This document shows, piece by piece, positions 42,466 to 45,046 of a stretch of DNA of 64,000 nt (positions are counted from its first letter, which is position 1; each line of letters begins with the position of its first letter). The DNA lies in NCBI GenBank assembly GCA_963700375.1, contig CAVOXF010000006.1:348021-412020 (forward strand). The letters are read 5' to 3'. The translations under genes and the position numbers were made by a program. The DNA is from an uncultured Actinomycetota bacterium (GTDB lineage: Bacteria; Actinomycetota; Acidimicrobiia; Spongiisociales; UBA5794). Under the pieces are notes generated by a model. The model was given only the letters and a program-made list of their open reading frames with translations. It was not told where the DNA came from and made no database searches.

Positions 42466-43224
42466 TCAGGCGGCGCGGTCCGGGGATCTCCACTCCTGGA
42501 GCGTGTGCGAGATCCACGCCTGGCAGCGGTCGAGAATCTCAACCGGGGACTCACCTGGGTGACGGAATACCGGCTCGCCGAAACGCACCCGCACCTTCGT
42601 TCCGTAAGGAATCGGGAACATGTTTCGCTGGAAGACCCTCCATGAGCCTTCGATGGCGGTCGGGATGATCGGAAGGCTCGGTGCAGCCTCCATGATCGCC
42701 GCGAGGCCACCGACTCGGAAGTCCCCCAGTTCGCCTGCTCGTGAGCGCGTCCCCTCGGGGAAGATGACGACCGACACATCTCGTCGCTCGGCCTCGGACG
42801 CCATCTCGGCGATCGCCTCCATTGCCTGGTCGCGGTGTTCACGGTCGATGACAGCGTTGCCGCCGTATCTCAGATTGAGCGACACGCTCGGGAGGCCTCT
42901 GGCGAGTTGCTTCTTCGCGACGTACTTCGGATAGTTGCGGGGCAGCAGACCGCCGAAGATCGGCACGTCGTACATCGACTGGTGGTTCGACACGAAGATG
43001 AAGCCGCCGTCCGGAGCGAACCGGTCTCTCCCCTCGGTCTCGACACGGATCCCGGAGATGCGGAACACAGCGACGAGCGTCTTCTGGAGGCCGGCCATCG
43101 CTTTCTCGAATGGGCGTTGTCCGAACGGCAGGGCACACAGGCCGATGAGGTGGAAGACCGCGAGTGTGAGGCCGAAGGCGGCGACGGTCGGGACCGTGAA
43201 CAACCAATCTCGAAAACGCTTCAA
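42466..43224 (-). CDS. plsC: 1-acyl-sn-glycerol-3-phosphate acyltransferase
   Basis: It has NHQSMYD and FPEGTRS motifs. A TTG start at 43224 overlaps the hydrolase stop (TTGA), giving about 252 aa. Confidence 0.8.
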   Translation of the reverse strand: MKRFRDWLFTVPTVAAFGLTLAVFHLIGLCALPFGQRPFEKAMAGLQKTLVAVFRISGIRVETEGRDRFAPDGGFIFVSNHQSMYDVPIFGGLLPRNYPKYVAKKQLARGLPSVSLNLRYGGNAVIDREHRDQAMEAIAEMASEAERRDVSVVIFPEGTRSRAGELGDFRVGGLAAIMEAAPSLPIIPTAIEGSWRVFQRNMFPIPYGTKVRVRFGEPVFRHPGESPVEILDRCQAWISHTLQEWRSPDRAA

Positions 43225-44097
43225 TTCAGGCTCGATTCTCTGCGCAGGAAGAGGATAAGTGCATCGTTGACCTGTTCGGGCTGCTCCTGTTGGGTCCAAT
43301 GGCCGCTGCCGGTGATCGGGACCACCTCGAGGTTCGGCACCCATCGTCGCATGCCGTCGGCGAGGGTCGGCGGCAGGATCGGATCGCGATCAGCGGTGAG
43401 CATGAGGGTCGGCTGCGTGATCGGCGCGTTGGCGAGGCTCATGGTGGCCGCGGCATTGGCATCGATGTTGCGATACGGGCCGAGCGGACCGAAGACACCA
43501 CCCCGGATGAAGGCCTCCCGATAGACGGCGAAGTCGGTGTCGGTCATGAATCCGGGGTCGGCAGCGATGCCCATGATAGACGGCGCGCAACCATGCATCC
43601 GGGTCGGAGTCGAAGGCTGCCTCCGTCACGCCGACCTCCTGGAAGCCGAGGACATAGCCGAAACGGTCGGCGAGGTGCTCCCGGATGACCGCCGTCGACG
43701 GAAAGCCGGCGCAGTAACCGCGGTACGGGACGTTGAGGCTGACGACCCTTTCGACCCGATCCGGGTGCAGGAGCGCGGTGCTCCAGACGACGATGCTGCC
43801 CCAGTCGTGCCCCACGAGCGTCGCTCGCTCGATATCGAGCACGTCGAGCAGGCGGACGGCGTCGGCGACCAGGCTGCGCAGACCGTACGCCTCCACGTCG
43901 TCGGGCTTGGAGGAGCCGCCATATCCGCGCTGGTCATAGGCAATCGCCCGGAAACCCGCTGCGGCGAGAGCCGGCACCTGGTGGCGCCACGAATAGGCGA
44001 GTTCGGGAAAACCGTGGATGAAGACGACGGCCTCACCGGCCCCCTCGTCGACGGTCGCGAGGTCCACGCCATTGAGGGCGTGCATGGTCTGATCCAT
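43221..44097 (-). CDS. Alpha/beta-hydrolase (epoxide hydrolase/haloalkane dehalogenase-like), frame broken by an apparent single-base frameshift near 43553-43575
   Basis: The 235-aa ORF has HGFPELAYSWRHQ and GHDWGS motifs. The 125-aa ORF in the -1 frame has the cap and C-terminal regions (TDTDFAVYREAF...GPYRNID...GSGHWTQQEQPE). Together they total about 292 aa. Confidence 0.7.
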
Positions 44098-44137
44098 ACC
44101 CCGAGGCTAGCGCAGGCAATCAACGGGCTCCATGACG

Positions 44138-44262
44138 CTGCGAACCCAGGGTTCTCCGCTTTCTATTTGGCGCCGACCGCCCACAGAACGATCGGGGCCA
44201 CCGCGGCCCTCCATTCCGCGGGCTGTCGGCGCCACATACGGGGTGGAGAACCCTGGGTTCGC
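44138..44262. repeat. Nested perfect inverted repeats (19-bp outer TGCGAACCCAGGGTTCTCC/GGAGAACCCTGGGTTCGCA; 9-bp inner GGCGCCGAC/GTCGGCGCC)
   Basis: The repeats were found by direct inspection. The outer arms are at 44138-44156 and 44244-44262. The inner arms are at 44168-44176 and 44224-44232. Confidence 0.6.
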
Positions 44263-44271
44263 AGATGAAGA

Positions 44272-44350
44272 TGACCGCTTCGTGCCGAAGGGGGGACACG
44301 GCACGAAGCGGTCGACTTGGACGACCGGCGGTTGGGGCCGATCGGTCGTC
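44272..44350 (-). ncRNA. Candidate structured sRNA / terminator: two adjacent hairpins with C-rich loops on the minus strand (6C-RNA-like)
   Basis: A 15-bp perfect stem gaccgcttcgtgccg/cggcacgaagcggtc has a loop that reads UGUCCCCCCUU on the minus strand. A 9-bp stem ggacgaccg/cggtcgtcc (44318-44350) has a loop that reads AUCGGCCCCAACCGC on the minus strand. The strand and identity are uncertain. Confidence 0.3.
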
Positions 44351-44569
44351 CGCAGCCCATCGGACCTGACCGCGGGAGAAAGAAGGGGGATGCGGCCGCG
44401 TCCAATGAACAGTCTGAATTGTGAGGCCCTTCACAGGACGGACGGGCGGAAACATGCCTTCCGAGCTGCTGGGGTTGCCGATCCTCGAGAGATCGGCTCC
44501 AAGGACCTCATCGGAGGCTACCGACAGGCCCGGATAGCGGCACCAATGTGAGACAGAATCTCCGGGATT

Positions 44570-45046
44570 TCAGCCGGGCGATTGCCAGCGATCTTCCGGG
44601 ATCTCCACGAGGACCGCTGAGCCCTTCGCCGTCACGACTCCGTCCACCGAGAGATCCGTTTCGACGATTGCTTTCCGTCCCGTGATCTCGACGAGCCGGC
44701 CGGTGAGGTGCATCGTTCCAAGCGGCGTCGGCAGCACATAGTCGATCTCGAGATGGGCCGTGACGAACCGCGGCGACGGATCGTCACCGACCCTCTTACC
44801 GTCGCGCTGCATCGCGAAGATCGCGGCCGAGCCGGTCGAATGGCAGTCGATGATCGAGGCTACGATCCCGCCGTACGCATACCCGGGAACGGCCGTGTGA
44901 TGGGGCTCCGGCGTGAACTCGGTCACGGTACCGCCGTCATCGGAGCGAGTCTTGATCTGATGCCCGACCTCGTTGAGCCGACCACAGCCGTAGCAGTGGG
45001 ATACGTCCTCTGGATACAGATCCTGGACCGCAATCCCGTCAGCCAT
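44570..45046 (-). CDS. Hotdog-fold thioesterase (PaaI/YbgC-like)
   Basis: It is about 158 aa. The GGIVASIIDCHSTGSAA region is typical of PaaI-type thioesterases. The start is at MADGIAV, 7 nt after the S9 peptidase stop. Confidence 0.65.
   Translation of the reverse strand: MADGIAVQDLYPEDVSHCYGCGRLNEVGHQIKTRSDDGGTVTEFTPEPHHTAVPGYAYGGIVASIIDCHSTGSAAIFAMQRDGKRVGDDPSPRFVTAHLEIDYVLPTPLGTMHLTGRLVEITGRKAIVETDLSVDGVVTAKGSAVLVEIPEDRWQSPG

Follow-up and report, generated by a model that had tools for sequence, protein, structure and literature searches.

The non-coding gap described here occupies positions 44098-44569 (470 nt) of a 64-kb stretch of DNA from an uncultured Actinomycetota bacterium (class Acidimicrobiia; contig CAVOXF010000006.1, positions 348,021 to 412,020; the whole stretch is referred to as the window), and its features resemble two groups of known elements, the dispersed palindromic repeats and the 6C small RNA (sRNA). 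Among the former, ERIC/IRU and Correia-type miniature inverted-repeat transposable elements (MITEs) are imperfect palindromes of about 100-155 bp found in Enterobacteria and Neisseria; they have TA target-site duplications, and some have a known parent transposase family. REPINs are inverted doublets of repetitive extragenic palindromic (REP) sequences with unique spacers, which leave singlets after excision and occur in mosaic arrays (PMC3337134). The 6C RNA forms a structure of ~80 nt with at least six conserved C residues in each of two loops, and GlxR was reported to bind upstream of its gene in C. glutamicum (PMC5014011). In M. tuberculosis, 6C has a loop L1 and two conserved loops, L2 and L3, and the C-rich loops bind G-rich ribosome-binding sites without chaperones (PMC6486639).

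The comparison of this locus with its relatives makes it likely that the gap is a minus-strand mosaic of three functional units: a 6C-like RNA, a palindromic repeat and a leaderless-type promoter. This analysis demonstrated the structures together with their conservation and covariation, established the strand of the RNA and its occurrence at a single locus, and showed the repeat to be multi-copy. The division of the region into an sRNA-like element and a miniature repeat, proposed in the original prediction (made from the sequence alone), was supported by both the Rfam match and the repeat count, and none of the findings named there as refuting it was obtained. Neither feature is categorically new, as one is a sub-threshold 6C-type RNA and the other a REPIN/MITE-like family, both in Acidimicrobiia.

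The gap separates two genes, as had been claimed, both of them on the minus strand: upstream a 4HBT/PaaI thioesterase gene with its stop codon at 44570-44572, and downstream an alpha/beta hydrolase gene (43221-44097) with its ATG at 44097. The minus strand is thus the sense strand of both flanking genes. In the window, the GC content of which is 64.8%, the third-position GC signal was strong in both of these genes and flat over the gap. The two open reading frames (ORFs) of 139 and 111 aa that cross the gap gave no Pfam match; on both grounds the coding reading was ruled out and the gap is regarded as non-coding, in line with the earlier view that neither ORF looks protein-like. No tRNA or tmRNA was found in the gap region. 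For the S9 peptidase, a look-up of the exact protein gave no record. The predicted minimum free energy of the gap was -249 kcal/mol for the plus strand (z = -8.1 against dinucleotide shuffles) and -264 kcal/mol for the minus strand (z = -10.0), and the native stability was reached by 0 of 100 shuffles.

Two hairpins that had been predicted to carry C-rich loops were present, each with coordinates off by 1 nt. One has a perfect 15-bp stem (44273-44287 / 44299-44313) and the minus-strand loop UGUCCCCCCUU at 44288-44298, with its run of C; the other has a 9-bp stem (44319-44327 / 44343-44351) and the minus-strand loop AUCGGCCCCAACCGC, with its CCCC. The suggested resemblance to 6C held in so far as the Rfam 6C model (RF01066) matched both of them over its full length (model positions 1-75, window positions 44270-44354) on the foreseen minus strand, but the score of 30.7 bits (E = 0.0096 in a 141-nt search of 44240-44380) fell short of the gathering score of 47. 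The orthologous loci L103, L100, L034 and L090 (loci are numbered with the prefix L) scored 33.0, 31.4, 35.4 and 33.5 bits, respectively, and 6C was the best Rfam match over the full model in five of the five lineages. The Rfam search of the whole window at the gathering level returned no 6C match, and 6C was also absent from a 901-nt search (43900-44800, E<=10), in which the speed filters masked the sub-threshold match; its absence from these first searches is a filter artefact and not a true negative. A sub-threshold Rfam match to MIR1151 was dismissed as generic-hairpin noise.

The second loop, UCCCCCCUU, has six contiguous C and equals the 6C family consensus (UCCCCCCcu), and the first, UCGGCCCCAACCG, has eight C in total, four of them contiguous. 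The related loci came from metagenome-assembled genomes (MAGs) titled Acidimicrobiia or Actinomycetota, i.e., from high-GC Gram-positive hosts, as is the case for 6C. Judged by sequence and predicted fold, the feature most probably represents a diverged Acidimicrobiia form of the 6C sRNA of actinobacteria; our literature search found no paper joining 6C with Acidimicrobiia. With the described members of the family (B11/ncRv13660c of M. tuberculosis, scr3558 of S. coelicolor and cgb_03605 of C. glutamicum) it shares the host phylum Actinobacteria, a core of ~80 nt with two adjacent hairpins bearing C-rich loops, the identical second loop, a U-poor terminator-like 3' hairpin and an extra, less conserved 5' hairpin comparable to L1 in M. 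tuberculosis. It differs from them in the first loop, CCCCAACC, with only four contiguous C, in a conserved CU-rich, anti-Shine-Dalgarno-like tract in the 5' domain, and in its position directly after the PaaI-thioesterase gene. The 6C genes of other actinobacteria adjoin a HAD-like gene; here the distance from the 6C-like RNA to a HAD-family hydrolase gene (PF12710; 38443-39393, minus strand) is ~5 kb, and L085 and L089 show synteny for this gene.

Orthologous loci were gathered via thioesterase homologs and via a metagenome scan with both conserved loop motifs; sediment and soil metagenomes are among the sources of L083-L108. Sixteen non-redundant orthologs were aligned for structure (RNAalifold prediction and pair counts), and 15 were used to build a family-specific covariance model, R1. 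The RNA followed the thioesterase ortholog at every orthologous locus fetched, and the gap after the thioesterase gene measured 450-510 nt in all of them. RNAalifold predicted three hairpins with 44 pairs; standard pairs filled 96.7% of the cells, versus 26-51% in the slid-partner controls, compensatory changes occurred at 11 pairs, and the covariation score was reached by 0 of 500 shuffles.

Model R1 set the full extent of the three-hairpin RNA at 44268-44414 on the minus strand. In the 3' hairpin (44273-44313; helix 6, corresponding to 6C hairpin 2 and the probable intrinsic terminator) all 15 pairs were 100% paired, with compensatory changes at five; the loop U-N-UCCCCCCUU was common to 16/16 sequences, and only one position of its 11 nt varied. 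The middle hairpin (44319-44351; helix 5, corresponding to 6C hairpin 1), a 9-bp stem with the loop AUCGG-CCCCAA-CCGC in the window, had 12 pairs in the alignment, 97.4% paired and two of them compensatory, and its UCGGCCCCAACCG motif (UCGG-CCCCAA-CCG) was unchanged in 16/16 sequences. Helices 5 and 6 together were thus 97-100% paired with seven compensatory pairs. Both loop motifs were fixed in the pattern that retrieved most of the orthologs, and the loop invariance is therefore partly an effect of ascertainment. In the 5' hairpin domain (44355-44411; helix 2, 98.4% paired) the stem UGUUCAUUGG / CCGAUGGGC closes a large loop, which holds a CU-rich tract (44374-44389) reading CCCCCUUCUUUCUCCC in the window and CUCCCUCCUUCCUCCC in the family consensus. 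This tract was conserved in the alignments; we take it to resemble the 3' end of 16S rRNA (CCUCCUUUCU), i.e., to be anti-Shine-Dalgarno-like. Between the core and the thioesterase stop codon, the alignments showed a conserved but less defined stretch (44415-44569, minus strand), so that conservation extends up to the stop codon itself. A hairpin further upstream, GCUAUC/GAUAGC (44517-44538), showed mixed covariation and is not claimed.

The strand of the RNA is the minus one, since the U·G pairs of the 5' stem would become A·C mismatches on the opposite strand and model R1 scored 156.3 bits on the minus strand of the window versus 26.8 bits on the plus strand. At the orthologous loci it scored 139-162 bits in the sense and ~25 bits in the antisense direction, with one match per locus. 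With R1, neither the 64-kb window nor 80 repeat loci yielded a second copy of the RNA, and there was no match to it in viral contigs or plasmids. The part of the gap outside the repeat likewise matched orthologous loci only. A weak R1 match off the orthologous locus, at L047 4475-4605 (23.8 bits, E about 0.002), is probably spurious.

The last hairpin was followed in the orthologs by a short U-rich tail, with 3-4 U within 10 nt, and for this reason probably terminates transcription. It might be argued that the C-loop hairpins are merely terminators or 3'-end stabilisers of the thioesterase mRNA, with no trans-acting sRNA involved, and that the 6C match reflects convergence between GC-rich hairpins. 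The constant position of the element after the thioesterase stop, the conservation reaching the stop codon, the short U-rich tail and the sub-threshold 6C scores all agree with such a role, and PMC6486639 cites the idea that stem-loops rich in C act as alternative terminators. A plain terminator, however, needs a stem and not a fixed loop, whereas this element combines covarying stems with loops (UCCCCCCUU and UCGGCCCCAACCG) and a CU tract that vary little or not at all among the 16 sequences, with the qualification that the loop motifs were fixed by the retrieval pattern and only the CU tract and the independently retrieved orthologs test loop constancy. Moreover, a stack of three conserved hairpins whose loops are C-rich agrees with the architecture of 6C, and it was 6C, and no generic hairpin family, that gave the top Rfam match in the five lineages. 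Hence, we consider the terminator-only explanation unlikely.

Several observations nevertheless weigh against a divergent 6C sRNA. All the 6C scores (30.7-35.4 bits) lie below the Rfam gathering score of 47, and the five lineages are mutually homologous, so their matches are not independent evidence. The first loop, as mentioned, does not contain six contiguous C. A purely cis-acting 3' untranslated region (UTR) would also fit the conservation up to the stop codon. The sigma-70 scan found no promoter for the RNA, and among the candidates, -10 elements of the CAGACT/GAAGAT type and CACAAT, none was settled. The consensus terminator scan made no call, and the U-tail after the last hairpin is short. 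Just upstream of the core, at 44420-44435, lies a CRP/GlxR-type palindrome, TGTGAAGGGCCTCACA, with a perfect TGTGA-N6-TCACA pattern, which was kept in the clade of the window and in L103 and was degenerate in other clades.

The length and structure of the gap, and its place upstream of a gene on the same strand, could suggest a riboswitch or attenuator function for the entire gap, as a cis-regulatory leader of the hydrolase gene. Most loci had the hydrolase gene on the downstream side; in L098, L100, L105-L108 and L006 a convergent gene took this place. The conserved RNA stayed with the thioesterase gene when its downstream neighbour changed; the RNA is therefore either part of the 3' side of the thioesterase gene or a gene of its own, and not a leader of the hydrolase. 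The RNA also ends in a terminator-like hairpin, and the repeat and a conserved leaderless-type promoter intervene between it and the ATG. The sole match to a riboswitch family was a weak plus-strand one to THF (20.6 bits against a gathering score of 36), which was rejected as noise. Altogether, a leader function of the whole gap appears most improbable.

The second unit of the mosaic, a REPIN/MITE-like palindromic repeat with no assigned strand (44135-44267), is a 133-nt hairpin-forming doublet. Its outer perfect inverted repeat, put at 19 bp in the original prediction, was present with a length of 20 bp (CTGCGAACCCAGGGTTCTCC, 44138-44157 / 44245-44264); this 20-mer occurs only at these two sites in the window, with 0.02 occurrences expected. 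The outer repeat widens to 51-nt arms that are 82% complementary and 25 nt apart. The inner perfect repeat of 9 bp (GGCGCCGAC / GTCGGCGCC) was also found, slightly shifted, at 44170-44178 / 44224-44232. The layout reads ACGCTGC, GAACCCWGGGTTC, an arm of ~35 nt, a spacer of ~22 nt, a second arm of ~35 nt, GAACCCWGGGTTC and GCAGCGT. The two GAACCCWGGGTTC palindromes (44142-44154 and 44248-44260), each perfect over 13 bp, are 106 bp apart, and the ~22-nt spacer (44190-44211) is hypervariable. The asymmetry of G·U pairs in this large palindrome was tried as evidence for a role as RNA and discarded: it points to the plus strand in the outer stem and to the minus strand in the inner one.

Copies were searched for in one-genome-per-species contigs with the pattern GAACCCAGGGTTC, 78-108 nt, GAACCCTGGGTTC. 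The long nested palindrome, for which a count of copies had been proposed, proved to be multi-copy: the exact pattern had 82 matches, almost all in Acidimicrobiia or Actinomycetota MAGs and on many contigs, with ~20 copies in MFD03804.bin.3.97 (CAWAUO01), ~18 in bin30015 (JANTHO01) and ~10 in GMC6.maxbin2.077 (JAOZRW01). A consensus was derived from 20 copies of 119 nt, mostly paralogs from MFD03804.bin.3.97, aligned with the window copy, which was 89% identical to the 133-nt consensus; the centre was hypervariable. The arms, which fall into two types, are imperfect complements of each other and differ alike in every copy. Such shared differences indicate that the elements are copies of a master sequence and not independently evolved hairpins. 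Other genomes had repeat subtypes of their own, of 108-130 nt, and no match to the repeat was found in viral contigs and plasmids. No paper containing the palindrome sequence, or joining REP with Acidimicrobiia, was found in the literature, and the family is previously undescribed.

The sole non-actinobacterial match to the two-palindrome pattern was at L066 2670-2787, from Shewanella atlantica. Its interior is AT-rich and unrelated, and AATTAAAGAAyCTCAGATAC recurs there after each palindrome; the match may reflect a distinct repeat of Shewanella or be due to chance.

The neighbours of the repeat are housekeeping genes, and 71 of the 81 copies lay between called genes. An integron attC nature was ruled out, as the copies are dispersed over many contigs beside such genes. 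The same site was occupied in different genomes, e.g., in L003, L010, L032 and L040. Among the 57 sides with an inbound gene (L001-L082), the distance between stop codon and GAACCCWGGGTTC palindrome was exactly 6 nt in 22 and 3-14 nt in most of the others. The palindrome-adjacent stops were TAA or TAG in 31 of 41 cases versus 143 of 454 other genes at the same loci (Fisher p = 5e-8), with TAA alone accounting for 15 of 41 versus 11 of 454. Either the stop codon is contributed by the ends of the element, or the element's insertion or retention depends on stops that contain TA.

These contexts raise the question of whether the doublet is a functional site of the host, spread by selection and not by transposition, e.g., a bidirectional terminator or a pair of GAACCCWGGGTTC operators ~10 helical turns apart. 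The perfect 13-bp palindrome in each arm at a distance of 106 bp, the retention of copies at orthologous sites across genomes, the lack of any transposase found and the siting just behind stop codons (at exactly 6 nt for 22 of the 57 inbound stops) are in agreement with this proposal. On the other hand, the copies are ~90% identical over ~110 nt, including the asymmetric arms, far beyond what a binding site needs, and the presence/absence and tandem-unit polymorphism at the locus, as well as the genome-specific subtypes, are typical of replicating repeats (PMC3337134). A host site spread by selection is thus quite unlikely, and the replicating REPIN/MITE-like repeat is preferred.

The polymorphism was evident among the relatives of the locus. 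The window, L085, L091, L094 and L034 carried the full doublet, L089, L095 and L104 retained one palindrome, L090, L093 and L099 had extra units in tandem, and the L103 locus had no repeat. At L093 2923-3218, four tandem left half-units with a period of ~59 nt are followed by one inverted right unit, and arrays of left half-units ending in an inverted right unit were also seen in L090, L099 and L101; tandem duplication is therefore a further way in which the repeat grows. An intervening gene lies between the 6C-like RNA and the repeat in L006, so that the two are independent of each other.

The notion of a MITE- or REP-type element was upheld as regards the multi-copy inverted doublet; no transposase and no target-site duplication were found, and any mobility would be putative. 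Some results speak against replication as a mobile element. The copies were gathered by an exact-palindrome pattern, and the conservation of the palindromes is partly due to ascertainment. The orientation of copies relative to the flanking genes was mixed, with no bias seen. There was no recurrent transposase-like neighbour among 570 ORFs near the copies, and a tblastn search for the REP-associated tyrosine transposase (RAYT) gave no match in 0.86 Mb, a weak test with an E. coli RAYT sequence as the query. The flanks of the copies showed no consistent target-site duplication. No parent element with the same inverted ends was seen.

From the sequence comparison the repeat appears to be a REPIN/MITE-like family in Acidimicrobiia, with REPINs as the closest published description. 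Like the REPINs and bacterial interspersed mosaic elements (BIMEs) of Pseudomonas and Enterobacteria, it consists of two inverted units with a short palindromic core around a copy-specific spacer, the whole element folds into a hairpin, and many extragenic, vertically inherited copies form genome-specific subtypes; lone palindromes are found where the doublet is gone, and tandem and mosaic arrangements occur. Unlike them, it lacks a GTAG-type 5' motif, it is longer (133 nt), its hosts belong to an actinobacterial class, and no RAYT was found for it in the weak test of 0.86 Mb. With the ERIC/IRU and Correia-type MITEs it shares its size (~130 nt), the long inverted repeats at its termini, the long hairpin that transcription would give, intergenic siting near gene ends and the absence of coding capacity. 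It differs from these in that no consistent target-site duplication was seen.

The third unit is a leaderless-type promoter at the hydrolase start (44095-44109, minus strand), in which TAGCCT (44104-44109) is separated by 6 nt from the ATG (44095-44097). The arrangement TAGCCT/TACCCT/TAGGCT, 6 nt and ATG or GTG was kept in all orthologous loci read. TAGCCT presumably represents the TANNNT -10 box of leaderless actinobacterial mRNA, and the hydrolase gene would then have its own start downstream of the repeat. A similar GCGCTAGCCT motif follows the repeat copies in L036 and L044. Compared with L083, a 98%-identical contig in which the hydrolase is intact (287 aa), the hydrolase gene itself carries one extra nucleotide near 43575 (GTCTAT[C]ATGGGC), which splits it into two ORFs; the gene is a pseudogene, or else the indel arose in assembly or sequencing.

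The following course of events would combine these units. We infer that a structured RNA of ~145 nt is expressed, either as the 3' UTR of the thioesterase mRNA or from its own promoter, and that its three hairpins expose single-stranded tracts rich in pyrimidines or C (CUCCCUCCUUCC-type, CCCCAA and UCCCCCCUU), with transcription also ending at the last of the hairpins. By analogy with 6C, the C-rich loops would pair with G-rich ribosome-binding regions of target mRNAs and repress their translation. Immediately downstream would lie one copy of the dispersed non-coding REPIN/MITE-like doublet, with two inverted units of ~55 nt predicted to fold into a hairpin of ~55 bp in DNA that is single-stranded or in RNA. 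The repeat family would be vertically inherited in Acidimicrobiia and would have been gained, lost or tandem-expanded at this site; it probably persists as a semi-selfish element, and may act as a transcriptional insulator or a 3'-end stabiliser after stop codons. The leaderless-type promoter would then start the hydrolase gene. A more specific proposal, conceivable but doubtful at this stage, is that the doublets are RAYT-less REPIN-like replicators of Acidimicrobiia that insert or are kept exactly at gene ends, often provide the stop codon of the host gene (TAA or TAG, at a distance of 6 nt to the palindrome) and serve in addition as bidirectional terminators or insulators, here insulating a 6C-type sRNA from a leaderless promoter.

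There is a practical warning in the observation that the 901-nt Rfam search missed the 6C match seen in the 141-nt one. Acidimicrobiia are a large, mostly uncultured actinobacterial class, and 6C-type RNAs in this class would escape annotation as they score below the Rfam gathering score. The Acidimicrobiia sequences could extend the 6C family and add a conserved 5' domain to be tested. The repeat, in turn, would represent a REPIN-like system outside Proteobacteria, where such systems have been best studied, and its unusually precise siting relative to stop codons, together with the enrichment in TAA and TAG, makes both the choice of sites and a possible use by the host as terminators testable.

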